This document shows positions 5,546-62,440 of a stretch of 64,000 bases of DNA, one piece after another. The notes beneath the pieces were generated by a model that saw only the letters and a list, made by a program, of their open reading frames with translations, made no database searches and was not told the origin of the DNA. A program made the translations under genes and the position numbers. Source of the stretch: Haliotis rufescens (lineage: Eukaryota); NCBI RefSeq assembly GCF_023055435.1, contig NW_025963857.1, positions 13,888,001 through 13,952,000 of the forward strand, read 5' to 3'. Position 1 is the stretch's first letter; each line of letters opens with the position of its first letter.

Positions 5546-5551
5546 TTTATT
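5546..5551 (-). terminator. Probable SF3B3 polyadenylation signal AATAAA (3' UTR ~0.8 kb)
   Basis: tttatt on the plus strand ~780 nt downstream of the stop. Confidence 0.55.
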
Positions 5552-6324: not shown

Positions 6325-6369
6325 CTAGAAAGCATATCGTGTTCGGATATCTTCAAGTTTCTTGGACAC
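6325..6369 (-). CDS. SF3B3: SF3B3 coding exon 26 ([14 protein letters not shown])
   Basis: CAG acceptor; TAG stop at 6325-6327. Confidence 0.95.
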   Translation of the reverse strand: MSKKLEDIRTRYAF

Positions 6370-9300
6370 CTGAAAATATGACAAGTATTCAACATCATTA
6401 AACATGTGTCCAAAAATGTAATCTGACAACCTACGTGAAATCTTTGATCCTAAAACTCAATAAGCTGTCGAAGACATGGAGGTCCCAGCAGAGTCGTCCC
6501 TATCGTCTAGGACTACAGATAACACTTTAGGTGTTCCAGGGAACTTGACCAAACATCCCACTTCATTTAAACAAGGTACCTGGTTGTCCTGAAATCCAAT
6601 ACCCATGAAACTGATAAGGAAATCCCTCCTGTTATGGTGGCATGTTACTGAGTCTGGTGATTGGCTACCCTCAAATCTGAACAATACATCTGAACACTCA
6701 GGCTTCAAACAAGACCAGTATGGAAATTACTAGTTGGTGTTCATATTTTTTAGGATTCCAACGACCAAGTTATCAACGTTCATATTAAAATAGCACTAAT
6801 TACTAACTTGTCAAAGGGTGACAGGCAATATAGTTTAAATCACTAATTACTAACTTGTCATATGGTGACGGGCAATATAGTTTAAAGCAGTAATTACTAA
6901 CTTGTCAAAGGGTGACAGGCAATATAGTTTAAAGCACTAATTACTCACTTGTCATATGGTGACAGGCAATATAGTTTAAAGCACTCATTACTAACTTGTC
7001 AAAGGGTGACAGGCAATATAGTTTAAAGCACTAATTACTTACTTGTCATATGGTGACGGGCAATATAGTTTAAAGCACTCATTACTAACTTGTCAAAGGG
7101 TGACAGGCAATATAGTTTAAAGCACTAATTACTAACTTGTCATATGGTGACGGGCAATATAGTTTAAAGCAGTAATTACTAACTTGTCAAAGGGTGACAG
7201 GCAATATAGTTTAAAGCAGTAATTACCAACTTGTCAAAGGGTGACGGTCAATATAGTTTAAAGCACTAATTACTAACTTGTCATATGGTGACGGGCAATA
7301 TAGTTTAAAGCACTAATTACTAACTTGTCAAAGGGTGACAGGCAATATAGTTTAAAGCAGTAATTACCAACTTGTCAAAGGAGGACAGGCAACATAGTTT
7401 AAAGCACTAATTACTCACTTGTCATATGGTGACAGGCAATATAGTTTAAAGCACTCATTACTAACTTGTCAAAGGGTGACAGGCAATATAGTTTAAAGCA
7501 CTAATTACTAACTTGTCAAAGGATGACAGGCAATATAGTTTAAAGCACTAATTACTCACTTGTCATATGGTGACAGGCAATATAGTTTAAAGCACTAATT
7601 ACTAACTTGTCAAAGGGTGACAGGCAATATAGTTTAAAGCACTAATTACTAACTTGTCATATGGTGACAGGCAATATAGTTTAAAGCACTCATTACTGAT
7701 TGTCACATGACAAGCAAATGTTAACAAATCACCCAAATCAGCCACCAAAGGACTTGATTTTACTCACCTCACTGGGGGTTCTCTCCAGCTCCTCCGCCAC
7801 ACTCTTCTGTTTGCTGGCTTCCATGGAATTGAACATCTCACACAGGTCGCCATCGATCACATTCTGAAACAACACAACAATGATGAGGCCCAGATTGGTT
7901 AAATATATGCCTCTGTCAGCTACATTCCACCTCAGCTTTAGTACTGGGTATTGGCCTCACCTTCGTATTGCAACTTATTGCAATAATGATTCATGTACGT
8001 ACCACGTATTCATACGTACCACAATATATTGCATGCATTCTTTCATCTGTAATATTTTAATGAATTGTCAAATACTGTTTCCTGGCTTTTGGTGGAGTAA
8101 GTAGTGATTCACACTCGTGATGGTTCAAGTTTGCCTTTGTGATTGAGTGAGTGAATGAGTGAGTTGTGTTTAACGCCGCTTTTAACAGTATTCCAGTTAT
8201 ATCGTTGCGTGTCAGCTTAATGTGGGAGGAAAGCCCGAAGTGATGCAGGTCTCGGACGTTTACCACTTCGGCAAAACCCACGAGCATGGGTATGGTGCTG
8301 ACAAACCTAGAAACATAATCGGGGCGAACCGGGATTCGAACCCTCAACCATAGGTTTCTGGTGTGCCCAAGGGACCCTTTGTAAGTGAATGTTTTCGAAA
8401 AATCTGGAGCATACAAACCAGTGTTTGATATAATGAAGGTATCCCAATCCGGACTTGTACAGGCACCCACACACACATACGCATGCACATCCAGTTTTGC
8501 CCTTTAATCTTGAACCTCATTATCTTCCTGAGGCAAGGGAGTTAACTGACCATAAAAGTTCAGTTTCCACCCTTGCCGGACTAGGCTGGAATTATGGAGT
8601 TATATTTTGGCTAGACTAAAGAGTCTATGCATAGTCCAATCAAATTTGAGTAACGAAATCAACATCCAGTTCGTAAACTGCCATGCAGATTTCCGTCGAT
8701 TGCAGGATTTGTAAGGCATGTGTACCGTCAACTTAGCATCAACAGATACTTTACAAATCGTTTCATGTTTTTAATCAAGGTGCTCACATGATTTGATGCA
8801 CTATTTCGAGTTAGACCCGTTTTGTTACAATATAGATCTTGATTATCGATCCTGTTGTCTTCACTGATCGCCGCCATTTTATATGAAGCAAATGCAAGTA
8901 ATATCAGGGGTGGAATTTGATAGGTCAATAGGAGGGACATAGAAGGGACATAACACGTAATAGCCACTACGATCAAACCCACAAATTCCAGCCTATTTTG
9001 GCAAGGGTGGAAACTGAAGATCTGTGGTCAGTTAACTCCCTTGCCTCGGGAAGATGCACCTCTCCACAACCACACTGCCAAGACGCCGATTGTAGCTTGT
9101 GCCTGAAGGCGCACTGCTGCATCCACCGATACCTTACCTTGACTGGATAGTAGTAGGATCTGTAAGCCAGGTGGTCCCGGCCACACAGAGGGGGGTACTC
9201 TGAACGCATGTACATCTCAAGATGTTGGAAAAAGTCGTGGTCCTGCAATATGGCAAGTTTGCATTTAGTTACATCATTTAATATCAAGGTAGGAGAGAAG

Positions 9301-12300
9301 AGTGAACGTGAGGACTACTGCCAGTTTGATTTGAACAGTATTACAATAGTATGAAGACCTGTGAGCTTAATGAGGGAGATATGTAATCATAATTCTTACA
9401 AATTTCAGATTCTAACACACCAAAAGTACTCTGGCACAGCTAAGGGACAACTCGGCAAAGCGACTTTTAGACTTAATAGCTGGGATATCCCTGTCCTCCA
9501 GAAAGGAGTGAGTAAGTGAGTAAGTTGGGTTTAAGCCGCTTTTAACAGTATTCCAGTTATATCACGGCCTGTTTACTTCAGTGAAACTCACGAGCACAGG
9601 TATGGTGCTGACAAACCTAGAAACAATCGGGGCGAACCCGGATTCAAACCCACAATCATAGGTTTCTGGCGTGTCCAAGGGATGCAACTCTGCACAGCCA
9701 TTTGCGGCGCCTTAGACAAATGATCCACCCGGCCACACTCCAGAATGGAAGGGACACAGACAGGTCATTATTCACACAATGTTTTATTCTAATGTAAGGA
9801 ATAACAAAACATACACAGATGACTCAAGAGGTTTAAGAGGTCTAAGTCGGAAAACCAAAACCCCCAAAAGCTTTCTACCAGTTTGTGAACTTCTGTTTTC
9901 ATTTTAAAGAAGAAAGATTGATTTCATGATCTGGGCACAGCCTAAGAAGCCCAAGTTTAGCTACCTCGTGCGATGTGAAGGGCACCAGCATGCCGATAGC
10001 ACCAGACAGGGTAGTGTAGACCAGAGACTCTGACCCCCCCGGGATCAACGTGGCCTTCTGGAGGGACGTCACAACCTCACCAACATGGAAGTTGGCAACT
10101 ACGTCAGCCTGGAACACACAAGAGGACAAATTTACTATCGGTATGTGATAACTGTCAATGTAATAAGAGATGAGGTGAGGTGAAATGGGTTTTAACGTAG
10201 TATCCAAGATTATTGCACTTATATAGCGACGTGTGTGCACGTGTGTGTGTGGCTGCTTGTACTAGCCCACTGAGATACCATGGCACAGTTTAACATGAAT
10301 ACCCCACTCAGATACAGTATGACTTCGAGCCGACCAGTCCTTGTTTTAGCCGAGCCACAGACAGGGTAACAATATGTACCATCTTTTAACATCTTTTGGT
10401 ATGACGCAGCCGGGGATCAAACCCCAGACCTTCCACTCTCCTGGCAGACGCTCTACCACTAGACCAAGGAGGCGGTCCAATGTAATAACTGTTTTTAGCT
10501 GGCTAACATTAGACAAAATAAATCTTTGTTTGTTGTTTAATGCCGCACTCAGCAATATTCCAGCTATATGACAGCGGTCTGTAAATAATCTGAGTCCCGA
10601 CCAGACAATCCAGTGACTGACATCATAAACATCATTCCACACAATTGGGATCGATGACATGCATCAACCAAGTCAGCGAGCCTGACCACCCAAATCCTGT
10701 TAATCACCTCTTACAACAAGCATAGTCGCTTTTAACAGCAAGCATGGATTGCTGAAGATCTATTTTACTCCAGATCTTCACGGGTCCAAAATACCATCTG
10801 TCAAACACAATACATCTGTAGTACGTTGGTTGTGCATAGAAGAACACTGGGGATCAGCATCACAGGTTGTAATCATTGATTCAGGTGAAACACGGAAAAC
10901 ATCATCTCCACAGTGAAATCTTTAATCTCAAGTTATGTCCACCATGTGGCAACGTCTCACCTTCTGTGAGGCACCATTCAGCAGTCCTCTGTCCCAGAGA
11001 GCCTTGTTCCCTGTCGGGTCCTCGTCCACCTCGTCAGACACATCCGCGGGAAGCCGCACCTGCAACAGTCAATCAGTTGGATTCAATGCTCCTTTGAAGG
11101 GTATTTCAGTTACATCCAGTGAACTGCATGTGGAACGAAAATTAAAGAGATGAAGTTCCACCATTTTTACCACATTAATGAAAAATATGAGAATATGTTA
11201 CCATCAAAACCAAGAAATATCACCAAGAGTAAATCTGGGAATAGCATCCACGGTAAGTTTCACCGCAACACAAAGAAATGGGGAGAAGGGAGAAAGGACA
11301 AGATAGGCAGCTGGGGACCCACATTCTTAACCAGAATCCTCATGGGGAGACAAGCTTAGGTTAGTGACCCATATCCTTCTTGCCCACTATGGCTAAAAAA
11401 AAATCAGACAGAGTACACATTGTAAACGATTCTCAGTTTAGTTAGCTTTGGGGACTGGGCATCCCATCTGAAAGCGTGTCTTTCCAATGTGGAGCTAAAG
11501 TATTGCCATATTCTGCCTCAATGTTACCCTGTTCAACATAGGATATTAACCATATTTTGCATGAACTGTGGTCACACATACTCAAACCAGGTGCCCATTA
11601 TATGCATTTTCTGCCCCAACATCCCCAGTTTCAAGAAATGTGACTGAGGTTATTATAAGAAATATCACACATGACGACCACTTGATATCCAAGTTGAACA
11701 AATTTGCAACAATCATTTGGATGCATTGGACCTATTCTGACCCAGGTTTGAAACATGTTCACAAAGTATCGTACGTACTGAGGTTAGACATACTTCCAAC
11801 CAATTACCTGTCTGAACTGAACACTACTAGAGTATTTACAGAAGTGTGGATCAGCATCACAGGTTGTAATCATTGATTCAGGTGAAACAGGGAAAACATC
11901 ATCTCCACAATCTATCCTTTCTCCAGCAGTTTTATTGTCAACATGGAATGCAAAACTCCAATTATAACAATCACAATATTGCCAAACATGTTTGCACCAG
12001 TCTACAAGTTTAGGTTGGGGACCTGAATTTTTACAAGGAATCCCAATGGGGAGACACGCATAGAATGCTTGGAACCTATACTCTTACCCGGAATCCCCAC
12101 AGTGAGACTAGCATCGGTTGGCTGGGGACTATATTCTTAACAACAATCTCCACAGGGAGACAAGCACAGGTTGGGGGCCTATGTTTATACCCAGAAACCC
12201 GACAAAGGGAACAGACAATCAGACCGTACACATTGTAAATGATTCCCAGGTTAGTCAGCTTTGGGCAGTAAGAATCCATTCTGCTCCAACATCCATCCCT

Positions 12301-15300
12301 ATTGGAGTATGTCAAATCAGAAAACGTGGCTTTCCGATGTAGAGCCCAATCCAAGTACCAGCCACATTCTGTCTCAATTATAGCCATATTATGCATCAAC
12401 TGCGGCCACATGTTCATGCTTGGTGCACATACTTTCTGTCCAAGGGTCTTCACCCCATGGAAATCAGTTATGAAAGGTATATTACAGACTAAGGTCATAT
12501 GATCAACAAGGACACACATTGCGACCACTCAATATTCAAGGAAAGACAAATCCTCAACAAGCATTTGGGTGTTTGGGGCCAATTCTGGTCAGAGTTCATA
12601 ATTTTTGGTATGCACTGAGGTCAGACATACTTCCAACCAATTACCTGTCTGAACTAAACAATACTAGAGTATTTACACAAGTGTGGATCAGCATCACAGG
12701 TTGTAATCATTGATTCAGGTGAAACACGGAAAACATCATCTCCACAATCTATCCTTTCTCCAACAGGTATTATTGTCAACATGGAAAGAAAAACTCCAAT
12801 AATAACAATCATAATATTGCCAAACATGTTAGCACCAGTCTATATGTTTAGATTGGGGACCTGAATTTTTACACGGAATCCCCATGGGGAGACTAGCATC
12901 GGTTGGCGGGGGACTATATTCTTAACAACAATCCCCACAGGGAGCCAAGCACAGGTTGGGGGTCTATATTTATACCCAGAATCCCCACTAAGGGAACAGA
13001 CAATCAGACCGTACACATTGTAAACGATTCCCAGGTTAGTCAGCTATGGGCAGTAAGAATCCTTCCTGCTCCAACATCGATTCCTATTGGAGTATGTCAA
13101 ATCGGAAAAGGTGTCTTTCCGATGTAGAGCCCAATCCAAGTACCAGCCACATTCTGTCTCAACAAGTATTTGTCACAGAGTGACGAAATATCCCCCGCCT
13201 GTACACCATACTACCAAATATGAAGACAATCCAGCGATTAGTTCTTGAGATATTGTGGCAAAACCGTTTTCCAACTCCAAAAACAGATTTGCCTGCTGTG
13301 ACCTTGAAAATGGGGTCAAGGTCACCAAATCTGACAGGTGTATGCGGTGTCTGTATATACACTATAGTTCCAAATATGAAGACAATCCAGCGATTAGTTC
13401 TTGAGATATCGCGGCAACACCGTTTTCTAACTCCAAAAGCAGATTTGCCTGCTGTGACCTTGACAATGGGGTCAAGGTCACCAAAACCGACTGGTGTCTG
13501 CGGTGTCTGTATATACACCATAGTTCCAAATATGAAGACAATCCAGTGTTTAGTTCTTGAGATATCGCGGCAACACCGTTTTCCAACTCTAAAAGCAGAT
13601 TTGTCTGCTGTGACCTTGAAAATGGGATCAAGGTCACCAAAACCGACTGGTGTCTGCGGAGTCTGTATATACACCATAGTTCCAAATATGAAGACAATCC
13701 AGTGTTTAGTTCTTGAGATATCGCGGCAACACCGTTTTCCAACTCCAAAAGCAGATATGCCTGCTGTGACCTTGAAAATGGGGTCAAGGTCACCAAAACC
13801 GACTGGTGTCTGCGGAGTCTGTATATACACCATAGTTCCAAATATGAAGACAATCCAGTGTTTAGTTCTTGAGATATCGCGGCAACAAACAGGTGGGACG
13901 TACGGACGGACGTACGGACGGTCGTGAATACTATATCCCCCGCTTCGCGCTTTCGCGCGGCGGGGGATAATTATAGCCATATCATGCATCAACTGAGGCC
14001 ACATGTTCATGCTTGGTGCACATACTTTCTGTCCCAGGGTCTTCACCCCATGGAAATCAGTTATGAAAGGTATATTACAGACTAAGGTCATATGATCAAC
14101 AAGGACACACATTGCGACCACTGAATATTCAAGGAAAGACAAATCCTCAACAAGCATTTGGGTGTTTGGGGCCAATTCTGGTCAGTGTTCATAATTTTTG
14201 TATGCACTGAGGTCAGACATACTTCCAACCAATTACCTGTCTGAACTAAACAATACTAGAGTATTTACACAAGTGTGGATCAGCATCACAGGTTGTAATC
14301 ATTGATTCAGGTGAAACACGGAAAACATCATCTCCACAATCTATCCTTTCTCGAACAGGTTTTATTGTCAACATGGAAAGCAAAACTCCAATACTTACAA
14401 TAGTGATATTGCCGAACTTGTCAGCACCAGTGACAGTGTCGTAGTCCAATTGGTATGAACATGTTATCCATCTTGGGTTGGTATCATCAGCAAAGACGAT
14501 GAGCTGGTTCTCCTGGCGCTTGTAGCGGAGGAAATGGAAGCTCTCCTGTACGTCGGCAACCATCACGCGGTTCCCCATTGTGTGGATGCTCACTACTGTA
14601 TTGGGGATATGCTGAGGACAGACAGTATGTTTGTGTACTACTTGTGGCCAGCCTTATAACTCCTGGATCACGTCACAAGGTCCAGGTGTAAAACATGTAC
14701 TTGATGAATTAATCTTCAGTTGTGATATCCTGTCAATGTCTTATGGAGCTAAATTTAGGTGAGCTGAAATTGGGATTAACGTAGCGTTCAAGATTATTGC
14801 ACTTACATAGCAACGTGCATGCACGTTTGTGTGTGTGGCTGCTTGTACTAGTCCGGACAGATGCCGATTTCTAGTGCTAGCACACTGAGATACCATGCCG
14901 CAGTTTAACGTGAATACCCCACTCAGACACAGTATACTGACTCCGAGCCGACCAGTCCTTGTTTTACACCCTTAATACCGAGCGCCAGACAGGGTTACAA
15001 CAAGTACAATCTTTTAACGTCTTTTGGTATGGCGTGGCCGGGGATTGAACCCCGGACCTTCCGCTCTCCGAGCGGACGCTCTACCACTAGGCCACGGAGA
15101 CGGACGCTCTACCACTAGACCACGGTGGCTGACGCTCTACCACTAGACCACGGAGGCAGACAGAGCTAAATTTAGGTCTCATTACAAAACTATGAAAGTG
15201 TTAACAGATAACCAAAGACATTCCTAATCTAGTCTGGCAACAAATGTTACTATTAACAAATAAGAGTAAAGTTATTCCTTCACGTGTATTTGACAACCTA

Positions 15301-37800: not shown

Positions 37801-39172
37801 TTTGTGGATCTGAAAACATAGAAAAAAAAGAGTTAAATCGTCGTACTTTCAATACAAGCATTATATATATACATGCTATAATTTTCTGCTCTGACGTAAT
37901 TTTCTTTGAAAAGCCAGCTTGTTGATACAAGTCACCAATTTGAAACTGAAAGAGCAATGTTCATGACTTATTTTCACTAAAGAAAAACAGCCGTGTTAAA
38001 TGTTGCAGTCAGAATTATTTAAACTATATCACAGAAGCCAGTAGAGACGTAATGGTTCTCTATGTTTGGTGCATTGTGACAAATCAGGTGCCAAATGAGT
38101 ATTAGATTGGTAAGTCATGTATTGACAGGAGTACAAATTTATCAAGAATATAAAGATGACATGACCTGCTCAGCTCCATTTTGCATTACCGTATTTTCTT
38201 AAGTATAGTGTGCACCCAAGCATAATGCGCACCCCCCTCTGGGGAAAACAATATTTTGGATGCCAGCAAAATTGACAAAAAGGAACATACAGTATTGAAA
38301 TTCACGTAATGGCTTGGCCGTGGTGCCTTGTATTTTCCCGATAAAAAAGATCAACATTATAGAGGAAGAGCCTTGTGCTTAAATTTACATTATTGCACTT
38401 AGTTTGGAATCTAAGAAATATCCTCGAGGCTGGCATATTGCAAAGTGCAGTGTAAAACAAGAAACTAATGAACAAATGCAACAAGCCAGTGGGGTCATAA
38501 CAAAGTGATAATTTGTTAGCAAGGTTTGTTAGGTAAATCAGATTACTTAGGCCTAATTCCAATATGCATGATAACTAACTTATAATGGGGTCATATTCAA
38601 AGATTAATATTAGCCAATGTCAGCAATGGTCTCAATGTTCAACGGTTATTGTAGAAACGCTGAAATTGAAAGAGGACCCTAAGAACGTAGATGGTTAGAG
38701 TCATAGGGTAGAATGCCATCCTTTGAGTTCCAAATCATTAATACTCCCCATTTGTTACACTCGTTCTACAAATTAGGGAACATGGCCAATATATGGTTGC
38801 TAATAAGGAATAGATCTGGCATTTAAGTCTCCCCAAATAGATCTACAAATGGTTATTTTTTCTGCTTTAGCAATGAATCGCTGAAAGTCATTTTTTGTGA
38901 ATTTTGTGCAATAATAACACGTATCAATTTGGACATAAGTGAGAAGAAAGGTATGCTATCTTATTCTTTGCATTGCACTGAATGGTTGATGTGCTGGTCT
39001 GCGTGTATTTCTTTGTTTCGAATATGGCTATATATAAACATTGAAAGTGTTATCTAAGTATTGGTGTTACGGAAACGTTATATATACACATCGTTTCAAA
39101 TGCTGTCACATTCTGCACAAATCGAAAATGAATATAAACGCACTGAACTCCGGAAGAGAAATAATTTCTAAC

Positions 39173-39260
39173 CTAATTCTTTGTTGGTGTTTGTGCCGGT
39201 TTTTCTTCACAGGCGGACGGTAAACTTTCGGCAAAACCGTTACAGTTTAACCGCAGCTGA
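39173..39260 (-). other. SF3B3: Probable non-coding first exon of SF3B3 (5' boundary uncertain)
   Basis: Coding exon 1 has a splice acceptor 9 nt before the ATG, so an upstream exon must exist. A CpG-containing stretch ends in AG|GTTAGA at 39172. Confidence 0.45.
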
Positions 39261-39821
39261 AGTCATAATTTCAAAAAACGATATTTGCACAGTTTATAAG
39301 TGCATTTGTGCATCGATGACAATGGATTGTTATCCGAGTTTCTACATTTCACGCTGTATGTATTCAAATCGTCGCATTACTTCCGTTACCCACAATTCAA
39401 CCGCACTTTCAATGAAACTACTTTCATCAACAGTACTAGCTCTTTACTTCGTAAAGTAATGAGTATAGGAATAAGTAGATGTCCTCTTTGTTCATAATTA
39501 ACGTTATAATGCACATCACTAACATTGCCGTCGTCGAATATCAGAAAGAAGTTTTACCTTGTAAGTGCCAGTTTATAATGATGAATATTCAAAGTCATTT
39601 TCAGACTTAATTATTATATATCTTGTGCTCTAATAAACTTTGTGAATATGAAGCTAATGTGAAGTACGCGATTAAATCATTGTATATAATGGAAGATCAA
39701 TAACGCGACTTACAAGGAGTGAAACGTTTTTTTGTGGCGGCAAAAAGCAAGAAGGCGATTGACATCTTGTTGTAATCAGATTTAGTTGTAAAGGAAATAG
39801 TATTCATTCAACCAAAATGGC
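39173..39821. promoter_or_regulatory. Bidirectional promoter region between SF3B3 and COG4
   Basis: Divergent gene starts in a SINE-free, CpG-containing stretch; ETS-type ACTTCCG at 39379-39385; YY1-type AAAATGGCG over the COG4 ATG (39813-39821). Confidence 0.7.
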
Positions 39822-39927
39822 GACGTCCATGGGCGATGCCACGTCCTCGACGTCGTTGGATACAGTTGAAAATTTGACAGATTTAGAAGCTATTCAAAAG
39901 GCATTCGATGAATTATGCAATGAAGAG
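39817..39927 (+). CDS. COG4: COG4 exon 1 (MATSMGD...LCNEE)
   Basis: ATG in AAAATGG context; donor GTAATG. Confidence 0.9.
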
Positions 39928-51900: not shown

Positions 51901-54900
51901 CCCATGTTTGTCGTAAGAGGCCACGAACGGGATCGGGTGGTCAGACTCACTGACTTTGTTCGTACATTGTATCCCAATTTTGAGGATCGATGCTAATGAA
52001 CGTCAATCATTGGATTGTCTGGTCCAGACTCCAGACCAATGTCATGTAGCTGGAATATTGTTGAGTGCGGCGTAAATTAACAAAACAAACACAGTAGCTT
52101 AGTTAAAGAATTACTGGTGCGTCCTTCAGTGACCATATTTCTGTGCCGTGGGAGGTTATAATGGCTATTTGCAGTGTAGGTTGGTTGGTTTGTTGTTTAA
52201 CGCCGGACTCAGCAATATCCCAGCTATATGATGGCAGTCTGTAAATAATCGATTCTGGACCAGACAGTCCAGTGATTAATATCATGAGCATCTATCCGTG
52301 CAATTGGGATCGATGACATGCATCAACCAAGTCAGCGAGCCTGACCACCCGATCCCGTTAGTCACCTCTTACGACAAGTATAGTCACCTTTTACGTCAAG
52401 CATGGGTTGCTGAAGACCAATTCTACCCCGGATCTTCACGGGCCCTATTTGCAGTGAATGATGGTGCACAATTAGTGTCCAAATGTTGTGACAGAGTCTC
52501 CGATAATGGGTTTGAAACCCTGATTCGCCACTATTCAAGGTTTGTCACTTCCAAATCTGTACTTTTGGGTTTCACAAAAGTGGTACCATTGCCCTGACAT
52601 GTCAAGAGTTAACTGAAATACTGTTCAAAGCGGCATTAAGCCTAGCTTACTGGCTCACATATACCATCACATGTTACTGTAAGAAAAGAAAACATCCTGT
52701 ATCTGAAACAGATCATTATCCCAAAATAAGATATAAAATTATAGACGTACACAAATGTATTTATATTTCCATGACCATAAGATAAAATATACATGTAGCT
52801 CTTTTGTTCCAGACTGCCTTAAACAATGCTGAAGTCAGTTCAGAATACTCAAAAGCTTTGAAAACAATCCTCGAGGTAAGATCATGCTATAGCATAAATA
52901 AGATATAAAAGGGTATTTGACAGTCAGTTAAAATAATTGTGTTTATTCGATCATAGAATTATATTGAAGAGGAAACCCCTCTGACACATACTGTTAATTT
53001 GGAATATTTCTCTTAATAATATAGTTATGTGACATAAGGTTATTTTGATGTTATCCTAATGCTATTCACCTTGTGTTTTATATCAGGATGAGGTATCAAA
53101 ACTCTACAGCCAGTGTACGGAGCAAGCCAGAGCCAAGCTAGAGGTTTGTGAGGTTTTCGTCTGATGAGACTGGTAGGATATGGGGGTGGGGGTGGGGGTG
53201 GGGGTGGGGTTGGGTGGGTCAGATGTGTTAGTCTGACCAGTGAGAGTGTGAGGATAGGGGTTGGGTGGGTCAGATGTGTTAGTCTGACCAGTGAGAGTGT
53301 GAGGATAGGGGTGGCGTGTCAGATGTGTTAGTCTGACCAGTGAGACTGTGAGGATGGGGGGGTGGGGTGTCAGATGTGTTAGTGTGACCAGTGAGAGTGT
53401 GAGGATAGGGGTTGGGTGGGTCAGATGTGTTAGTGTGACCAGTGAGAGTGTGAGGATAGGGGTTGGGTGTCAGATGTGTTAGTCTGACCAGTGAGACTGT
53501 GAGGATAGGGGTTGGGTGTCAGATGTGTTAGTCTGACCAGTGAGACTGTGAGGATGGGGGGGTGGGGTGTCAGATGTGTTAGTGTGACCAGTGAGAGTGT
53601 GAGGATAGGGGTTGGGTGGGTCAGATGTGTTAGTGTGACCAGTGAGAGTGTGAGGATAGGGGTTGGGTGTCAGATGTGTTAGTCTGACCAGTGAGAGTGT
53701 GAGGATAGGGGTGGGGTGTCAGATGTGTTAGTCTGACCAGTGAGACTGTGAGGATAGGGGTTGGGTGGGTCAGATGTGTTAGTGTGACCAGTGAGAGTGT
53801 GAGGATAAGGGTGGGGTGTCAGATATGTTAGTCTGACCAGTGAGACTGTGAGGATAGGGGTGGGGTGTCAGATGTGTTAGTCTGACCAGTGAGAGTGTGA
53901 GGATAGGGGTGCGGTGTCAGATGTGTTAGTGTGACCAGTGAGAGTGTGAGGATAGGGGTGGGGTGTCAGATGTGTTAGTCTGACCAGTGAGAGTGTGAGG
54001 ATAGGGGTGGGGTGTCAGATGTGTTAGTCTGACCAGTGAGAGTGTGAGGATAGGGGTGGCGTGTCAGATGTGTTAGTGTGACCAGTGAGACTGTGAGGAT
54101 GGGGGGGTGGGGTGTCAGATGTGTTAGTGTGACCAGTGAGAGTGTGAGGATAGGGGTTGGGTGGGTCAGATGTGTTAGTGTGACCAGTGAGAGTGTGAGG
54201 ATAAGGGTGGGGTGTCAGATATGTTAGTCTGACCAGTGAGAGTGTGAGGATAGGGGGGTTGGGTGGGTCAGATGTGTTAGTGTGACCAGTGAGAGTGTGA
54301 GGATAGGGGTGGCGTGTCAGATGTGTTAGTCTGACCAGTGAGACTGTGAGGATGGGGGGGTGGGGTGTCAGATGTGTTAGTGTGACCAGTGAGAGTGTGA
54401 GGATAGGGGTTGGGTGGGTCAGATGTGTTAGTGTGACCAGTGAGAGTGTGAGGATAAGGGTGGGGTGTCAGATATGTTAGTCTGACCAGTGAGACTGTGA
54501 GGATAGGGGTGGGGTGTCAGATGTGTTAGTCTGACCAGTGAGAGTGTGAGGATAGGGGTGCGGTGTCAGATGTGTTAGTGTGACCAGTGAGAGTGTGAGG
54601 ATAGGGGTGGGGTGTCAGATGTGTTAGTCTGACCAGTGAGAGTGTGAGGATAGGGGTGGGGTGTCAGATGTGTTAGTCTGACCAGTGAGACTGTCAGGAT
54701 AGGGGTGGGGGGTCAGATGTGTTAGTCTGACCAGTGAGACTGTCAGGATAGGGGTGGGGGGTCAGATGTGTTAGTCTGACCAGTGAGACTGTCAGGATAG
54801 GGGTGTGGGGTCAGATGTGTTGGTGTGACCAGTGAGACTGTCAGGATAGGGGTGTGGGGTCAGATGTGTTAGTCTGACCAGTGAGAGTGTGAGGATAGGG

Positions 54901-57900
54901 GTGGGGGTCAGATGTGTTAGTGTGACCAGTGAGAGTGTGAGGATAGGGGTGGGGGGTCAGATGTGTTAGTCTGACCAGTGAGACTGTCAGGATAGGGGTG
55001 GGGGTCAGATGTGTTAGTCTGACCAGTGAGACTGTGAGGATAGGGGTGGGGGTCAGATGTGTTAGTGTGACCAGTGAGACTGTGAGGATAGGGGTGGGTG
55101 TCAGATGTGTTAGTGTGACCAGTGAGACTGTGAGGATAGGGGTGGGGGTCAGATGTGTTAGTGTGACCAGTGAGACTGTCAGGATAGGGGTGGGGGTCAG
55201 ATGTGTTAGTCTGACCAGTGAGACTGTCAGGATAGGGGTGGGGGGTCTGATGTGTTAGTCTGACCAGTGAGAGTGTGAGGATAGGGGGGTGGGGTGTCAG
55301 ATGTGTTAGTCTGACCAGTGAGACTGTGAGGATAGGGGTGGGGGTCAGATGTGTTAGTCTGACCAGTGAGAGTGTGAGGATAGGGGTGGGGGTCAGATGT
55401 GTTAGTGTGACCAGTGAGACTGTGAGGATGGGTGGGTGTCAGATGTGTTAGTGTGACCAGTGAGAGTGTGAGGATAGGGGAGGGGGGTCAGATGTGTTAG
55501 TGTGACCAGTGAGACTGTCAGGATAGGGGTGGGGGTCAGATGTGTTAGTCTGACCAGTGAGAGTGTGAGGATAGGGGGGTGGGGTGTCAGATGTGTTAGT
55601 CTGACCAGTGAGACTGTGAGGATAGGGGTGGGGGTCAGATGTGTTAGTCTGACCAGTGAGACTGTGAGGATAGGGGGGTGGGGGTCAGATGTGTTAGTGT
55701 GACCAGTGAGACTGTGAGGATAGGGGGGTGGGGGTCAGATGTGTTAGTGTGACCAGTGAGACTGTGAGGATAGGGGGGTGGGGGTCAGATGTGTTAGTCT
55801 GACCAGTGAGAGTGTGAGGATAGGGGTTGGGTGTCAGATGTGTTAGTCTGACCAGTGAGAGTGTGAGGATAGGGGTGGGTGTCAGATGTGTTAGTCTGAC
55901 CAGTGAGACTGTGAGGATAGGGGTGGGGGTCAGATGTGTTAGTCTGACCAGTGAGACTGTGAGGATAGGGGTGGGGGGTCAGATGTGTTAGTCTGACCAG
56001 TGAGAGTGTGAGGATAGGGGTGGGGGTCAGATGTGTTAGTCTGACCAGTGAGACTGTCAGGATAGGGGTGGGGGTAAGATGTGTTAGTCTGACCAGTGAG
56101 ACTGTCAGGATAGGGGTTGGGTGTCAGATGTGTTAGTCTGACCAGTGAGACTGTCAGGATAGGGGTGGGGGTAAGATGTGTTAGTCTGACCAGTGAGAGT
56201 GTGAGGATAGGGGTTGGGTGTCAGATGTGTTAGTCTGACCAGTGAGAGTGTGAGGATAGGGGTGGGGGTCAGATGTGTTAGTGTGACCAGTGAGAGTGTG
56301 AGGATAGGGGTGGGGGTCAGATGTGTTAGTCTGACCAGTGAGAGTGTGAGGATAGGGGTGGGGGTCAGATGTGTTAGTCTGACCAGTGAGAGTGTGAGGA
56401 TAGGGGGGTGGGGGTCAGATGTGTTAGTCTGACCAGTGAGAGTGTGAGGATAGGGGGGTGGGGTGTCAGATGTGTTAGTCTGACCAGTGAGAGTGTGAGG
56501 ATAGGGGTGGGGGTCAGATGTGTTAGTCTGACCAGTGAGAGTGTGAGGATAGGGGGGTGGGGGTCAGATGTGTTAGTCTGACCAGTGAGAGTGTGAGGAT
56601 AGGGGTGGGGTGTCAGATGTGTTAGTCTGACCAGTGAGAGTGTGAGGATAGGGGGGTGGGGTGTCAGATGTGTTAGTCTGACCAGTGAGAGTGTGAGGAT
56701 AGGGGTGGGGGTCAGATGTGTTAGTCTGACCAGTGAGAGTGTGAGGATAGGGGGGTGGGGGTCAGATGTGTTAGTCTGACCAGTGAGAGTGTGAGGATAG
56801 GGGGGTGGGGTGTCAGATGTGTTAGTCTGACCAGTGAGAGTGTGAGGATAGGGGTGGGGGTCAGATGTGTTAGTCTGACCAGTGAGAGTGTGAGGATAGG
56901 GGGGTGGGGGTCAGATGTGTTAGTCTGACCAGTGAGAGTGTGAGGATAGGGGGGTGGGGTGTCAGATGTGTTAGTCTGACCAGTGAGAGTGTGAGGATAG
57001 GGGTGGGGGTCAGATGTGTTAGTCTGACCAGTGAGACTGTGAGGATAGGGGTGGGGGTCAGATGTGTTAGTCTGACCAGTGAGAGTGTGAGGATAGGGGG
57101 GTGGGGGTCAGATGTGTTAGTCTGACCAGTGAGAGTGTGAGGATAGGGGGGTGGGGTGTCAGATGTGTTAGTCTGACCAGTGAGAGTGTGAGGATAGGGG
57201 TGGGGGTCAGATGTGTTAGTCTGACCAGTGAGAGTGTGAGGATAGGGGGGTGGGGGTCAGATGTGTTAGTCTGACCAGTGAGAGTGTGAGGATAGGGGTT
57301 GGGTTTCAGATGTGTTAGTCTGACCAGTGAGAGTGTGAGGATAGGGGGGTGGGGTGTCAGATGTGTTAGTCTGACCAGTGAGAGTGTGAGGATAGGGGTG
57401 GGGGGTCAGATGTGTTAGTCTGACCAGTGAGAGTGTGAGGATAGGGGTGGGGGTCAGATGTGTTAGTCTGACCAGTGAGAGTGTGAGGATAGGGGGGGGG
57501 GGTGTCAGATGTGTTAGTCTGACCAGTGAGAGTGTGAGGATAGGGGTGGGGGTCAGATGTGTTAGTCTGACCAGTGAGAGTGTGAGGATAGGGGGGTGGG
57601 GTGTCAGATGTGTTAGTCTGACCAGTGAGACTGTCAGGATAGGGGTGGGGGTCTGATGTGTTAGTCTGACCAGTGAGACTGTGAGGATAGGGGTGGGGGG
57701 TCTGATGTGTTAGTCTGACCAGTGAGAGTGTGAGGATAGGGGTGGGGTGTCAGATGTGTTAGTCTGACCAGTGAGACTGTCAGGATAGGGGTGGGGGGTC
57801 AGATGTGTTAGTCTGACCAGTGAGACTGTCAGGATAGGGGTGGGGGGTCTGATGTGTTAGTCTGACCAGTGAGACTGTCAGGATAGGGGTGGGGGGTCTG

Positions 57901-60900
57901 ATGTGTTAGTCTGACCAGTGAGACTGTCAGGATAGGGGTGGGGGGTCAGATGTGTTAGTCTGACCAGTGAGACTGTCAGGATAGGGGTGGGGGGTCAGAT
58001 GTGTTGGTGTGACAGTGAGACTGTGGGGATGGGGTTCTATATCATAACTTGGGTTTTAGCTTTGACTTCAATGAATATTTGAAGGGAGACACTTCTCAGA
58101 CAATTTGGTTCTGTTTGATTCATGATGACTGAACACCATTTTCTTTGCCTGCCAATTAGGTTTTATTATGTTTGTAACAGTTAATGATTCCCTGAGAATA
58201 TGTCGTGATCTCACACATCTAGATCTCATATATTCCTCAAGTTGAGCACATACGCCTTTCTGATTTCCATTGAAGAAATATCTTCTTTTTTTCGCAGAGC
58301 TGTTTGTCAGACCTTGGAACGGTACCCGCCAAGTTCAAGGACGTGATCGAGTTTGGCTTCTCCCAGCTGACATCGAGTGTTGTGAAGCCTCGCGTCAAAC
58401 CGCTGGTGGAGTCCTTCCTCTCTACAGACCACAATTTGACTGAGGTGGGACACAGATTTTATTGAACTTCATGTAGTGTGAAAGTCAAGTTTGGCTAACT
58501 CGTGCTTGTGTTATGACAGATTCAGAGTCACAGACTTCTTGTTTTCTCCAAGTTTGATTGGTAAACTTGAGACAAAAAACTCTGATATTGTGGATGTTGG
58601 ATGTTGAAAACAGTGTTATCAATTTTAGTGAAAACAAATAGAGACAGATTTTTTAAAGTTAATACTTGATGGTAAAATGTCATGTGCATTTGTAAAGGAA
58701 CGATTGTAAAACAGTATCTACTGTGTGGCAACCTGGACTTTTCAAAGGGCGCAATAACCCTGATATCTTTGTTGTTTTGGTGGAGCCAAACTAGTTTTCA
58801 TGAGTTTATTTCAGCGTCTCTCAAATATGAGAAAGGTTTTCTGGTTGGATAGGAAATAGGAGTATGTTTGCCCTGGCGGGCTGTTGTAGTCCTGTGGTGA
58901 CAATCCATGTACTTTCCATTGCCAGGAGGACTTCTCCAACTATGAGGCAAACGATCCGTGGGTCCAAAACTTCATTATGAACCTGGATGCTCTGTTCAGC
59001 ACTTTCAAGGTAGGTGGTGAATATTTTATGTGATTATATTTGTCAAATTATGTTTCAACTCAGGGACCTGCTTCACAAAATGAACATAGTGCTACGACTA
59101 TTGTTAGCATAGACTTACGACAGTCGTTACATTATGATCATGGGTGAAACGAGCCATGTTACGCAAAGCCATCTTAGCACCCCAATAATGTCATAACCCT
59201 CACTTTAACATAGACTTATAGTCGTTGTGGGGCTGTGATTGCTTTGCTGAACAAGGCCGTGGGTTAGAGTCGGTCTCCAGCACTAAAGTGCTGGCTGTAA
59301 CAGGGGCCTAAGTAGATTGAGGGGTCAGGCTGATTGCGTGTCAGTTTACCCCAATGACTTTGGATGTTCTTCTAGTCACTGGTTTGCCTTGACTCGATTA
59401 TCTATCAGCCGCTATGATACAGCCAAGGGGGGGGGGGGGGCAGGCTCAGTGGTCTTGTAATGCAAGTGTCATCTGTTTCACCACAGAAGTAACCATCTGT
59501 GACCTGCGTCATTTCGGGCTTTCCTCCAAACCTCCAACCCTCCAACCCTCCAACCCTCCAACATTAAGCTGACATAGTGTTAAATAACTGAAGTAACTGT
59601 ACACACCTGTATCACAAGAAAACTTAACATATGTCAGGTCATTTGGCCAAGGCTCAGAGAGAAGGTCATCAAGAAATATTTTGGAAAAATCATGGAAAAA
59701 TGGAAAGTTTAATGACTTTAATTATTCCCAGTGAAGTACAAAAGAAACAATTGTGCCCCCTTGGTGAAGATAAAAAAAAAGACACCCTCTTCGGAGTTCC
59801 CCCCAAATTACATGTATTTTATATTTGCCTTTTCAGAATGTATTATCATTTTTTGTACACTCGTTCATGAAATGTTTCCTAACCATGATTAGATATATAC
59901 AGTTCACAGTTACGAAATTTTGTTTGAGCGCGACAGTACTGATGTGTTGCGTGTGTGTTGTTTGTAGGCCACTCTCACATCGGGAAACTACGACCGCCTT
60001 GTGAACCTCATCGTGGGTGAGATCACCGTTCAGCAGGAGAAGGCCATCACCAAGTCAACATTCAACAGGGTCGGTGAATCATGGCTTCATTTCAGTACAC
60101 TTAGACTTGACAAGAATTTGTCATCTGTAATGACTTGGAATAGTTAGTGTAACCGGTCTGAGATTCGAACCCTGGCTGCGTTATAGTGAAAGATGGTACC
60201 GGGATATCACATGTTTGGGCCCACGCAGAATTAGAAACATAAAAAATGTCTTTAATTTTGGAGTGATTTTGCTTAAATCAACCCCTTTCCCCCTTTCGAA
60301 AACCAATACTTGGCGATGCACGACACATGGCAAATCTTAATGTACATTCAACAATAATGAAAGGTCAAGTTTGGCATTCTATGAAGTTACTTCCTCCCCA
60401 AATGTATATCCATGTATTATGTTTTCTCAGTTAAAACAACTTTTTTTTCTGCAAAGGTTGTCCATTATATTTAGGTAAGAAAGCTTAAGCTTTCGAAATT
60501 GAGCCTTGGGCTTCATTTCAGATAAAATATCTTAAATGAGAAAGCACCCGGGGAAGTCCTGGTACCTCTTGTTACCCTGCCTTGCACTCAGCATTAAGGG
60601 GCTAAAACAAGGACTGGTCGGCTCGGAGTCAGTATATTTTGTCTGAGTGGGGTATTCATGTCAAACTGCAGCACGGTATCTCAGTGAAGCAGCACTATAA
60701 AATTTGCCTTAGTCCAGGCTAGTACAAGCAGCCACACACACACGTGCATGCACGTCGCTATATAAGTGCAACAATCTTGAACGTGACGTTAAACCTCAGT
60801 TCACCTCAGTTCACCTCACCTCACCTCACCTCACCTCACCTCACCTGTTAGTAACCTGCTCTGTTCCAGCTGGGAGGCCTCCAGTTTGACAAGGAGCTGC

Positions 60901-62440
60901 GTTCATTGGTGGGCTACCTCTCCTCCGTCACCACCTGGACCATCAGAGACAAGTTCGCCCGCATCACACAGATGGCCACCATCCTCAACCTGGAGCGGGT
61001 AGGTCACAGACACAGGACAAGGGAGTTAACTGATTGTAAAAGTCCACTTTCCACCCTTGCCGAACTAGACTGGAATTTCTGAGCTCGATCATAGTGCCAC
61101 CAGTGGCTATTACAAGTTATGTCCCTTCTATGTCCCTTTCCTCCCACATTAAACTGACATATAATATAATATAACTGGAATACTGTTAAAAGCGGCGTCA
61201 AACCCAACTCACCCACCCACCCTTCTATGTCCCTCCTATTGACCATTCAGATTTCACCTTTCATATCACTTATATTTGCTTCAAACAAAATGGTGGCACC
61301 CAGTCAAGATGATCTGATCGATAATCAAGTTATATATTGTAATAAAACCAGTCTTACTTTGCAAGGTGCATAAAATCATGTGAGCACCTTGATGAAAGCT
61401 GGAGCTTCAGTTATGGGGAATATTGCAACAGAGTCACTACTAGGTCAAATATGAGACTGTAGGTGATCCATCGCTGAGGTCCTGTGCTGTTATTACCAGT
61501 AGTAGACCAATCCAGCTTCAGTTATGGGGCATATTGCAACAGTCACTACTAGGTCAAATATGAGACTGTGTAGGTGATCCATTGCTGAGGTCCTGTGCTG
61601 TTACTACCAGTAGTAGACCAATCCAGCTTCAGTTATGGTGTTATTGCATCTTGGTGCAGTATGAGGCTGTTTTACGTGATCTTGTTGAAAACTTATAGTA
61701 ATTATAGTTATTTTGTTCAGCTGTTCAAGATAAATATTCGTAAATCTATGAAACTGTTCAATTGTGTTTCTCCAAACACCGGGGCGGTGGGGTAGCCTAG
61801 CGGTTAAAGCATTCGCCCATCATGCCGAAGACCCGGGTTTCGATTCCTGACCTTGGTACAATGTGTGAAGCCCATTTCTGGTGTCCCCAGCTGTGATATT
61901 GCTGGAATATTGCTAAAAGCGTAAAATCATACTGGCTCACTCACTTCTCCAAACATCATATTAACATAACTCAATGGCAATACCTTAATCCTTTTGAACA
62001 TTTTTCAGTAACTAAATTTAGCATGGTACTTTTCAGTTTGTTTTATCTATCTGCAAGATCCTTGAAGAGTTAATTACAAAACAGCATTACCTTCTTTGGT
62101 CTAACATATTCCCCTGATTCAGCATCTAACGTCTTTCCTGCTCTTCCCAGGTGTCAGAAATACTCGACTACTGGGGTCAGAATTCTGGACCTTTGACCTG
62201 GAGGTTGACCCCTACTGAAGTCAGGCAGGTGCTCAGTCTCAGGTGAGTTGATTACAGGTGTGATTGAGTACCACCTATAGCTGAAAACTGTCTCGATTTT
62301 TGCAACGTAAATGTTCATAGGTATTATTAACTTAGAATTATGGTAATATTTTGTTTTATGAACATGTATATTAACTGTGTTGTTATTTTTTCACCAGGGT
62401 GGACTTTAGAATAGAAGATATCAAGAGGCTGAAGTTATGA
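39817..62440 (+). CDS. COG4: Conserved oligomeric Golgi complex subunit 4, complete spliced CDS, 22 exons, 760 aa
   Basis: Motifs [90 protein letters not shown] match COG4. All introns are GT-AG and exons sum to 2283 nt in frame. Confidence 0.97.
41309..41391 (+). CDS. COG4: COG4 exon 2 (MTVEDELK...LHKA)
   Basis: TAG/GTGAGT. Confidence 0.92.
42453..42567 (+). CDS. COG4: COG4 exon 3 (PNLQILQ...LDLAK)
   Basis: CAG/GTAACG. Confidence 0.93.
42905..43006 (+). CDS. COG4: COG4 exon 4 (SRVSDCIE...EDYEK)
   Basis: CAG/GTAACA. Confidence 0.93.
43452..43543. mobile_element. Very short Tc1-like MITE (TA|CTACTCAAAAGAAATTAAGGACCAC TIR)
   Basis: Inverted ends; related copies at ~17685 and ~48172-48296. 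Confidence 0.7.
43730..43802 (+). CDS. COG4: COG4 exon 5 (AAGHIHRY...DNDE)
   Basis: TAG/GTGGGT. Confidence 0.92.
45105..45298 (+). CDS. COG4: COG4 exon 6 (GTLDISFK...YLAKK)
   Basis: CAG/GTACAA. Confidence 0.93.
45716..45872 (+). CDS. COG4: COG4 exon 7 (LSENADNQ...VETYY)
   Basis: CAG/GTAGGT. Confidence 0.93.
46008..46677. repeat. 65-66-bp minisatellite (~10 diverged units)
   Basis: Unit GACATCACCTGGCAGTATTGGCTATATCACATGGTATTATAGACTAGGACACCTGGTGTTATT. Confidence 0.9.
46678..46901. mobile_element. MITE (possibly PIF/Harbinger-like; 3-bp CTG TSD) containing a SINE B 3' fragment
   Basis: TIR GCCCACTTGCACAAAGCGATCTTAGC / GCTAAGATCGCTTTGTGCAAGTGGGC; degenerate relatives at ~5715-5820 and ~59063-59260. 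Confidence 0.75.
47123..47229 (+). CDS. COG4: COG4 exon 8 (PGKLLILL...DYEHK)
   Basis: CAG/GTAAGA. Confidence 0.93.
47784..47836 (+). CDS. COG4: COG4 exon 9 ([17 protein letters not shown])
   Basis: CAG/GTGAGT; phase consistent. Confidence 0.88.
47864..48130 (+). mobile_element. Retroposon family A, full-length copy
   Basis: TSD ACTTGTATGTCT. Confidence 0.9.
48660..49285. repeat. Pyrimidine-rich ~15-bp repeat (CACCGTCCTCTGTT-like) interrupted by SINE C
   Basis: Direct reading; runs up to the COG4 exon 10 acceptor. Confidence 0.85.
48884..49166 (+). mobile_element. tRNA-derived SINE family C (~280 bp, V-domain-like body)
   Basis: A box TGGCCCAGTCG, B box GGTTCGAATCC, GTGGGTTTC...TTTCCTCC, TSD TCACCATCCTCT. 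Other copies near 8144, 9506, 16030, 16385, 19709, 26392, 28438, 44515, 63812. Confidence 0.9.
49296..49392 (+). CDS. COG4: COG4 exon 10 (LEPKDLDV...KRRAL)
   Basis: CAG/GTAACA. Confidence 0.92.
49688..49730 (+). CDS. COG4: COG4 exon 11 ([14 protein letters not shown])
   Basis: CAG/GTAAGT; required to restore phase. Confidence 0.85.
50875..50993 (+). CDS. COG4: COG4 exon 12 (ECVDLDKY...EMVLK)
   Basis: CAG/GTAGGG. Confidence 0.92.
51315..51400 (+). CDS. COG4: COG4 exon 13 (AVNMDTLE...VKKSV)
   Basis: TAG/GTGTGT. Confidence 0.92.
51622..51847 (+). CDS. COG4: COG4 exon 14 (RTISSSSVD...KTLFL)
   Basis: CAG/GTCAGT. Confidence 0.93.
52178..52444 (-). mobile_element. Retroposon family A, full-length copy
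   Basis: TSD CTATTTGCAGTG. Confidence 0.9.
52813..52875 (+). CDS. COG4: COG4 exon 15 (TALNNAEV...KTILE)
   Basis: CAG/GTAAGA. Confidence 0.92.
53087..53143 (+). CDS. COG4: COG4 exon 16 (DEVSKLYS...RAKLE)
   Basis: CAG/GTTTGT. Confidence 0.9.
53217..58015. repeat. ~4.8-kb G-rich minisatellite with a 48-51-bp unit
   Basis: Unit GTCAGATGTGTTAGTCTGACCAGTGAGA(G/C)TGTGAGGATAGGGGTGGGG; fills most of COG4 intron 16. Confidence 0.98.
58298..58444 (+). CDS. COG4: COG4 exon 17 (SCLSDLGT...HNLTE)
   Basis: CAG/GTGGGA. Confidence 0.93.
58926..59009 (+). CDS. COG4: COG4 exon 18 ([12 protein letters not shown]...STFK)
   Basis: CAG/GTAGGT. Confidence 0.93.
59968..60069 (+). CDS. COG4: COG4 exon 19 (ATLTSGNY...STFNR)
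   Basis: TAG/GTCGGT. Confidence 0.93.
60870..60998 (+). CDS. COG4: COG4 exon 20 (LGGLQFDK...LNLER)
   Basis: CAG/GTAGGT. Confidence 0.94.
61403..61637. repeat. 111-bp direct repeat, ~2.1 copies
   Basis: AGCTTCAGTTATGG recurs at 61403, 61514 and 61625. Confidence 0.85.
62151..62242 (+). CDS. COG4: COG4 exon 21 (VSEILDYW...QVLSL)
   Basis: CAG/GTGAGT. Confidence 0.94.
62398..62440 (+). CDS. COG4: COG4 exon 22 ([13 protein letters not shown])
   Basis: CAG acceptor; TGA stop at 62438-62440. Confidence 0.93.

Follow-up and report, generated by a model that had tools for sequence, protein, structure and literature searches.

We analysed the orientation of short interspersed elements (SINEs) in a 64,000-nt stretch of the Haliotis rufescens genome (contig NW_025963857.1, 13888001-13952000; henceforth the window, to whose positions we refer) and in a wider sample of genes from this genome. 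In the window, SF3B3 (minus strand) and COG4 (plus strand) are arranged head to head. SINE copies in both genes lie overwhelmingly in the sense orientation, and their strand flips at the shared promoter region. The bias is real and recurs widely across the sample; its direction is the reverse of that in mammals, and arrays of cryptic splice donors do not explain it. It is also conditional, being strong only in CpG-depleted gene bodies, a point absent from the earlier sequence-only reading of the window. The bias likely arises at insertion rather than by the weeding out of antisense copies.

SINE orientation in SF3B3 and COG4

SINE families were first drawn from a self-comparison of the window and then rebuilt as four profile models (families A, B, C and D), which were searched on both strands; the search is strand-symmetric. 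The gene models were obtained by exon chaining, and some exon boundaries are approximate. Three of the four window exons scanned have Pfam support: RSE1 beta-propeller (PF10433) for SF3B3, and COG4_m and COG4_C (PF08318, PF20662) for COG4.

6325..37800, minus: SF3B3 coding span, 27 coding exons, ATG at 37800, stop at 6325, about 1205 aa (exon chain)
near 39560, minus: likely SF3B3 5' untranslated region (UTR) exon, read by eye
39560..39817, no strand: probable shared divergent promoter region, placed from the gene starts, where SINE orientation flips
39817..62440, plus: COG4 coding span, 22 exons, about 753 aa (exon chain)

In SF3B3, 29 of 30 SINE matches are sense (29 minus, 1 plus; 30 to 1 if the D pieces at 29681 and 30237 count as two), and in COG4 18 of 22 are sense (18 plus, 4 minus). 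The departure from parity was significant for SF3B3 (binomial p=3e-8, 30 to 1 count) and for COG4 (p=0.004), as was the flip between the genes (Fisher p=2e-9). Copies with an intact 3' end number 22/1 in SF3B3 and 12/3 in COG4 (paired counts are sense/antisense here and below). These results bear out the sequence-only reading, which had counted by hand about 26 of 27 copies on the minus strand in SF3B3 and about 16 of 20 on the plus strand in COG4, and had placed a flip of orientation at the shared promoter. The tails are also as it described them, (AAAC)n for A and CTCA-type repeats for B, C and D. It had assigned four of the five exceptions to family A; this is right (17231 A, 41517 A, 47272 B, 50591 A and 52180 A), though A is also the commonest family in the window genes, with 21 of the 52 matches. 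The matches are as follows.

8149..8377, minus, family B, sense
9509..9736, minus, family B, sense
10172..10477, minus, family D, sense
10524..10785, minus, family A, sense
11071..11253, minus, family B old fragment (39 bits), sense
14756..15104, minus, family D full length, tRNA-like head (ARAGORN/Rfam tRNA 15031-15102), sense
16031..16269, minus, family B, sense
16388..16671, minus, family B full length, sense
17231..17464, plus, family A, antisense, sole SF3B3 exception
17530..17683, minus, family A fragment, sense
18070..18237, minus, family B fragment, sense
19335..19579, minus, family A, sense
19708..19951, minus, family B, located in tail of C copy, sense
20030..20186, minus, family C, sense
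20242..20441, minus, family A, sense
21652..21953, minus, family D, sense
22499..22605, minus, family A fragment, sense
23059..23301, minus, family A, sense
26392..26650, minus, family B, sense
27458..27837, minus, family A, split by later insertion, sense
28434..28715, minus, family B, sense
29681..30539, minus, family D, two pieces (29681-29736, 30237-30539), sense
30970..31207, minus, family A, sense
31214..31329, minus, family B fragment, sense
31336..31598, minus, family A full length, sense
31611..31755, minus, family A fragment, sense
31760..31834, minus, family C fragment, sense
32180..32427, minus, family A, sense
37080..37291, minus, family A, sense
37287..37395, minus, family C fragment, sense
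41517..41652, minus, family A fragment, antisense (COG4)
41955..42119, plus, family C, sense
43227..43483, plus, family B old, sense
43592..43705, plus, family C fragment, sense
43897..44064, plus, family C, sense
44490..44745, plus, family B, sense
44757..45028, plus, family A, inserted in B tail, sense
46726..46794, plus, family C 3' fragment, sense
47272..47381, minus, family B 3' fragment, (ACTC)n tail, antisense (COG4)
47866..48128, plus, family A full length, sense
48884..49167, plus, family B full length, young, sense
49527..49622, plus, family B head fragment, sense
49788..50020, plus, family A, sense
50591..50816, minus, family A old, antisense (COG4)
51873..52090, plus, family A, sense
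52180..52442, minus, family A full length, antisense (COG4)
52477..52659, plus, family B fragment, sense
59260..59423, plus, family A old, sense
59470..59605, plus, family B fragment, sense
60560..60809, plus, family D, 5' truncated, sense
61136..61220, plus, family B 3' fragment, sense
61781..61945, plus, family C, sense

Sense bias in other genes and its dependence on CpG depletion

The sample, which was not random, covered 101 genes in 139 stretches totalling 1.39 Mb, or about 0.1% of the genome. Genes of known strand were located by Pfam searches of the genome, and stretches of up to 10 kb were taken, mostly between collinear exon matches. Some SNF2, myosin and MutS stretches reach past exon matches and were assumed to be intragenic. 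CpG observed/expected was computed from masked intron DNA, with a cut of 0.65 that was set after seeing the data. We left out L182 (a duplicate of L183), one twice-counted A piece in COG4 and loci L001-L030, which served only for profile training.

Low-CpG stretches (n=82) contained 397/74 copies (397 of 471, 84% sense), whereas high-CpG stretches (n=57) contained 198/138 (198 of 336, 59% sense; p=1e-15 for the contrast). The contrast was stable for CpG cut-offs of 0.5-0.75. Counts were 240/58 against 123/94 when only 3'-intact copies were used, and 294/65 against 178/126 when copies with shared flanks were merged, in the sample before the last 18 stretches. The bias in the window could have been a local fluke had orientation been near 50:50 elsewhere; given the 84% in low-CpG genes of the sample we reject this, and uphold the claim that the sense bias is opposite to the antisense bias of mammals. 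Gene by gene, 43 of 48 low-CpG genes were sense-majority (3 ties, 2 antisense-majority; median 88% sense), compared with 19 of 32 high-CpG genes (median 61%). Intronic CpG was the best single covariate found for the sense fraction (per-gene Spearman -0.50, n=80).

Gene groups differed: SNF2 100/13, kinesin 97/22, giant muscle/matrix genes 45/4, MutS genes 27/4, myosin 49/18 (49/15 without the duplicate L182), voltage-gated channels 70/32, cellulases 87/61, SLC6 61/51 and hemocyanin 6/5, three hemocyanin genes having been located in the genome. Conserved, non-expanded genes with high CpG had a weaker bias (54/28, p=2e-4); in a few of them, large inserted elements raise CpG. The minus-strand stretch L222 (CpG 0.41), whose exons were found afterwards and look ATM-like from their peptides, has six of six SINEs sense. 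We dropped the labels "housekeeping" and "somatic" as a covariate because the giant muscle genes are strongly biased and CpG-poor, and rejected intron length as the cause because the short-intron cellulases are far less biased than SNF2 genes, whose exon density is similar. The spacers that separate single-exon receptor genes made a poor neutral control, being duplicated and rich in repeats.

We take CpG depletion as a probable proxy for germline gene-body methylation or transcription. The proxy is backed by the SINE copies themselves, which have decayed at 0.39 per CpG site in low-CpG genes versus 0.16 in high-CpG genes (2.4 times more), and by an excess of A>G over T>C on the coding strand in low-CpG genes only, a small effect. 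In invertebrates, low CpG marks germline methylation and housekeeping genes, as described for coral (PMC4378018).

Cryptic splice donors

The sequence-only reading offered two origins for the bias: insertion biased by the transcribed strand, which is the option we prefer, and a purge of antisense copies because their tails read as GTGAGT/GTGAG donor arrays, which fared poorly. We scored splice sites with matrices built on 239 sites, drawn from the 47 chained introns of the window and from predicted exons. The tails do read GTGAGT/GTGAG in antisense, the antisense donor of D is strong (10.0 bits) and B is the most biased family (90% sense, not significant). Human Alu elements show a sense excess 20-200 bp from exons that has been attributed to antisense acceptors (PMC3088655). 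However, tail type, which was predicted to matter, made no difference in low-CpG genes (A 172/35, 83%; B, C and D together 225/39, 85%; p=0.53). D, the sole family with a strong antisense donor, is not more biased (82% sense), and the B/C tail donor TGA/GTGAGT reaches 4.1 bits, under the 10th percentile (4.6) of the real donors in the window. Antisense survivors of B, C and D do not differ from sense copies in the number of donor hexamers in their tails (p=0.35), and the best acceptors of A and B (9.1 and 8.4 bits) lie in the sense orientation. Nor do host introns avoid such motifs: GT[AG]AGT is not depleted on the sense strand of SNF2 (55 vs 60) or kinesin introns (67 vs 71), the minisatellites of the two window genes put 113 and 178 GTGAG on the sense strands, and cellulase genes with short introns tolerate 61 antisense copies among 148. 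The sense fraction is 88% within 300 bp of predicted exons (144/20) and still 76% beyond 1 kb (80/25), which places the bias past the exon flanks and allows at most a minor splice-linked share. A purge of donor arrays is thus largely refuted in this sample, and we regard selection against these or other cryptic splice sites as an improbable cause.

Insertion or selection

Copies of all ages and states of preservation are biased. Those at most 4% diverged are 82/9 (90% sense) against 206/48 for older ones (p=0.049), with no build-up of bias with age. Copies with the head intact are 85% sense and those that have lost it 82%; interference from SINE promoters was rejected as the cause because headless copies are equally biased. 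There is no heterogeneity among families (p=0.32), and intact 3' ends are commoner in antisense survivors than in sense copies (58/74 vs 240/397 intact of total, p=0.004). No SINE feature is counter-selected. Across low-CpG stretches, sense and antisense counts are uncorrelated (rho 0.03), whereas one fixed sense fraction predicts 0.39; a rho this low was reached in 0 of 5000 simulations, and high-CpG stretches are correlated (0.49). Antisense counts are flat while sense counts vary, and the sense fraction climbs with density. Other repeats in the same introns, several with terminal inverted repeats and resembling miniature inverted-repeat transposable elements, are unbiased (9/9, 5/4, 12/8, 10/6 and 4/3). 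We rejected local hopping from the host pre-mRNA, as copies sharing a stretch show no greater similarity than copies elsewhere (p=0.43-0.59), and a distinct class of target-site duplication (TSD) for sense copies, as median lengths are 12-13 in every group.

These results are weighed against fast purifying selection on antisense copies by a route other than donors, such as antisense RNA, pairing with abundant SINE RNA or double-stranded RNA formed with sense neighbours. Such selection would be strongest in conserved, broadly expressed genes and would amplify a small intrinsic bias. SINE density is 0.60 per kb in low-CpG and 0.68 in high-CpG genes, antisense density falling 2.8-fold while sense density gains just 1.25-fold. 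The housekeeping character of low-CpG genes (coral, PMC4378018) would suit selection, as would the residual 59% sense in high-CpG genes (p=0.003), the co-orientation of same-family neighbours even there (67%), and the rise in the sense fraction from 76% for copies with no same-family neighbour to 87% for those with more than three. Yet even among lone copies 76% are sense, fragments lacking the head or tail show the same bias as full copies, there is no age trend, and four unrelated SINE bodies behave alike. Two of 48 low-CpG genes are antisense-majority, which excludes simple symmetry-breaking. We consider fast selection unlikely.

Target-site availability, under which skewed introns would offer more copies of a tail-matching target motif on their coding strand, would also act at insertion. 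TSDs begin with tail-like pyrimidines after a T, and biased genes have a larger T>A skew (Spearman 0.24). In the weakly biased GH9, SLC6 and hemocyanin loci (L091-L110, L151-L174), SINE tails face the exon within 200 bp (6/20 after donors, 21/7 before acceptors, p=3e-4), a pattern that is absent in strongly biased genes and indicates that local targeting exists. However, a 16-position model trained on 31 A and 71 B/C/D sites gives just 49-53% sense in every gene class. Judged by this model, target-site composition as the sole cause is refuted unless a far more specific motif is involved, and we give it hardly any weight.

Transcription or replication

In target-primed reverse transcription, the cDNA joins the 3'-OH of the nicked strand, so that a sense copy is one primed on the template strand of the gene. 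SINEs would use machinery borrowed from long interspersed elements (LINEs), and in germline-active genes this machinery may prime reverse transcription on the template (transcribed) strand. The passage of RNA polymerase II (Pol II) might expose or create a template-strand 3' end, possibly because the transcribed strand is nicked, because repair incisions are used or because the machinery docks on elongating Pol II. A sense-only input would then be added to a strand-blind background. We tentatively favor this reading, template-strand priming at insertion in germline-transcribed, CpG-depleted gene bodies, as the source of the sense excess. A bolder version, in which elongating Pol II steers a mollusc LINE machinery to near one-way sense insertion genome-wide, as a mirror of human L1, is possible but more doubtful. 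Transcription can set the strand at insertion, as it does for de novo human L1, though with the opposite sign (PMC5717806).

The polarity might instead follow replication forks that originate at active promoters and move in the direction of transcription, with priming by the LINE machinery on one fork strand. A sense copy would then be primed at nascent lagging-strand ends or on the leading-strand template, and orientation would flip at the promoter-origin. When forks follow transcription, the template strand of a gene also serves as leading-strand template or as nascent lagging strand, so forks fit too, also at the level of insertion. A preference for one replication orientation is known for human L1 (PMC10030826, PMC10018349, PMC5371812). 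In abalone DNA, plus polarity runs past the COG4 stop (15 plus and 2 minus at 63-93 kb, 47 plus and 18 minus to 164 kb); most of this DNA is high in CpG and lacks a clear gene. On contig C246, a plus-polarised SINE domain at 5.59-5.83 Mb (L131-L136, L216-L220; 36 plus and 10 minus after duplicates were merged) spans a high-CpG cluster of minus-strand single-exon receptor genes. It thus opposes these genes, and no exon of a host gene over it was found in 20 sampled stretches; the DNA at 5.25-5.39 Mb is minus-biased. Against forks, polarity is lost beyond the end of SF3B3 (12 plus and 15 minus over 48 kb), different-family neighbours in high-CpG genes are co-oriented at 53% where chance gives 52%, and read-through or unannotated transcripts could produce polarity beyond genes. 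Read-through transcription in oocytes could extend polarity past gene ends. We prefer transcription to forks, which we rate as a rather unlikely cause, because different-family neighbours are co-oriented at chance and the bias tracks gene-body state.

Stretches L061-L070 (equivalent to window 64-164 kb) combine the plus polarity past COG4 with a slight T>A skew, and one weak plus-strand exon candidate lies there at L064:7664-7771.

Several points weigh against template-strand priming in transcribed genes. The polarity past COG4 and the C246 domain both lie outside detected host genes. Total SINE density is not raised in low-CpG genes, which fits purging as well, and the bias is less pronounced far from predicted exons. 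Low CpG goes with conserved, essential genes as well, and since the giant muscle/matrix genes are strongly biased at low CpG, "essential" and "germline-active" are not cleanly separated. A methylated SNRK-like gene beside the window has only 9/5. Window copies for which a check was possible are common to a second species and hence old, as contig pieces end inside several of them in all or most DNA runs, second species included. Under fast selection the bias can be equal in young and old copies, as has been said of mouse endogenous retroviruses (PMC3446317). De novo insertions of the Drosophila I-element show no strand bias (PMC10018349), and the human model of transcription-coupled repair (TCR) predicts antisense rather than sense copies (PMC5717806).

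Structure and identity of the SINE families

The tails are (AAAC)n in A, (ACTC)n in B and C, and (CACCT)n in D, and A, B and C have a 3' end of about 45 bp in common. TSDs of at least 7 were found in 139 of 243 full-length copies, with a mode of 12-13, and start with 1-4 nt matching the tail. These lengths and the tail microhomology identify ordinary target-primed insertions. Family A has a LINE-type head and 36 copies with a TSD of 8 or more (median 11). The AATATA-type hexamer that precedes the repeat in Haliotis LP-SINEs is absent in its exact form from the consensus; a near variant is present. Family D has a tRNA-derived head, matched by ARAGORN and Rfam (RF00005) at 15031-15102, followed in the consensus by an inner (CA)n and a terminal (CACCT)n. 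The heads of B and C are tRNA-like by eye, with TSD and repeat tail present; ARAGORN and Rfam gave no match to them in the window. No canonical polyA signal occurs in the four consensuses in either orientation.

Families A and D seem to be already-known Haliotis elements, matched by description. LP-SINEs (Hdi/Hmi_LP) are defined by a head of about 70 bp in common with a LINE 5' UTR (PMC4758252, PMC4824008); family A resembles them in its LINE-5'UTR-type head, TSDs and repeat tail. Family D resembles the Haliotis MESC SINE/MetaSINE HalSINE1 (PMC4758252, PMC4824008) in its tRNA head, and its inner (CA)n and (CACCT)n end agree with the text description of MESC (PMC4758252). No orientation data were found in the searched passages of these two papers. 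B and C matched no named SINE family. A two-ORF LINE with reverse transcriptase and RNase H (L140:5833-5881 and 3-5601, minus) has a 5' end that weakly matches the A head (E=7e-5). A partner LINE with the tail common to A, B and C was not found; the two RNase H LINE ends that were read carry a different tail.

Nested insertions in SINE tails and tandemly amplified SINE heads occur at 19951-20030, 44745-44757 and 15100-15159 of the window and at L063:9212-9860. The D head is amplified threefold in the window and the A head 13-fold in L063.

Other features of the window and the sample

Two long intronic minisatellites, at 33665-35888 (19 bp x 118) and 53207-58035 (49 bp x 98), are G-rich on the host coding strand, so that G skew, too, flips at the promoter. 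An SF3B3 exon end with its intron is present as decayed tandem duplicates at 11666-13162 and 13969-14431 (82-96% identical), interrupted by a 156-bp x 4.4 tandem repeat (13202-13887). Each duplicate carries a candidate box C/D small nucleolar RNA (snoRNA), of which SF3B3 introns hold six sense copies (minus strand: 10848-10912, 11845-11909, 12682-12746, 14274-14338, 18450-18514 and 22390-22450). About 65 nt are conserved from a C-like box through the D', C' and D boxes, while the flanks diverge. There is no copy elsewhere in the sampled DNA and no Rfam match. The putative guide before D' may resemble a conserved segment of large-subunit rRNA; human SF3B3 is a host of snoRNAs. Miniature inverted-repeat transposable element (MITE)-like repeats with inverted ends lie at 8522-9055, 25365-25810, 27550-27700 and 61018-61397 and recur in 11-27 other sampled loci.

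Elsewhere, Polinton-like (L114, L207, L143), DIRS-like (L036, L043, L113, L223, L224) and Gypsy-like (L150) frames were labelled by Pfam, several of them inside introns of conserved genes. A tandem cluster of about 15 myosin-head genes occupies C113 13.93-14.29 Mb; the one that was read (L184) is muscle-type myosin II-like.

Comparison with known systems and significance

Intronic sense fractions in human are 0.39 for LINEs, 0.47 for SINEs and 0.32 for long terminal repeat (LTR) elements (PMC7797064). Mouse SINE variants are 41.6% sense, the same across gene classes (PMC3446317), and zebrafish LINEs and LTR elements avoid the same strand near genes (PMC9341512). As in mammals, the strand of retroelements in abalone genes depends on the direction of host transcription, but the sign is opposite, the effect is far larger (84% vs 42-47% sense SINEs) and it is tied to CpG-depleted gene bodies. 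The TCR bias of de novo human L1 (PMC5717806) is set at insertion, as we propose here, and is stronger in expressed genes. There, repair removes template-strand (sense) intermediates and leaves antisense copies, whereas here template-strand insertions would dominate; there, the bias depends on transcription of the target, and here it tracks CpG depletion, a proxy. Human Alus near exons (PMC3088655) are also SINEs in the sense direction, but that excess is confined to 20-200 bp from exons and attributed to an antisense acceptor, whereas here the bias persists beyond 1 kb and the stronger acceptors are in sense. Bivalve HCD SINEs, also abundant intronic mollusc SINEs, accumulate in genic regions (PMC11481361); that paper's passages concern density, with no strand relative to genes found. 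Our literature search, with subscription journals and supplements outside its reach, returned no report of a strong, methylation-conditional sense bias.

The strong sense bias is a new form of the known intronic orientation bias, and its mechanism is probably insertion. Whether such bias originates by insertion or selection is a long-standing question, addressed so far nearly exclusively in mammals, whose bias is modest and antisense. In the abalone sample it is reversed, at about 5 to 1, common to four unrelated SINE bodies and apparently switched on by the germline state of the gene body. So large a bias, at about one SINE copy per 2 kb, makes the question testable with large numbers from population genomes. 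If the bias is set at insertion, it would point to a so far undescribed connection of target-primed reverse transcription to Pol II (or forks). In unannotated mollusc DNA, the strand of SINEs predicts that of the gene as well as its germline activity, and if the LINE machinery is indeed steered by Pol II, SINE strand would be a fossil map of germline transcription.

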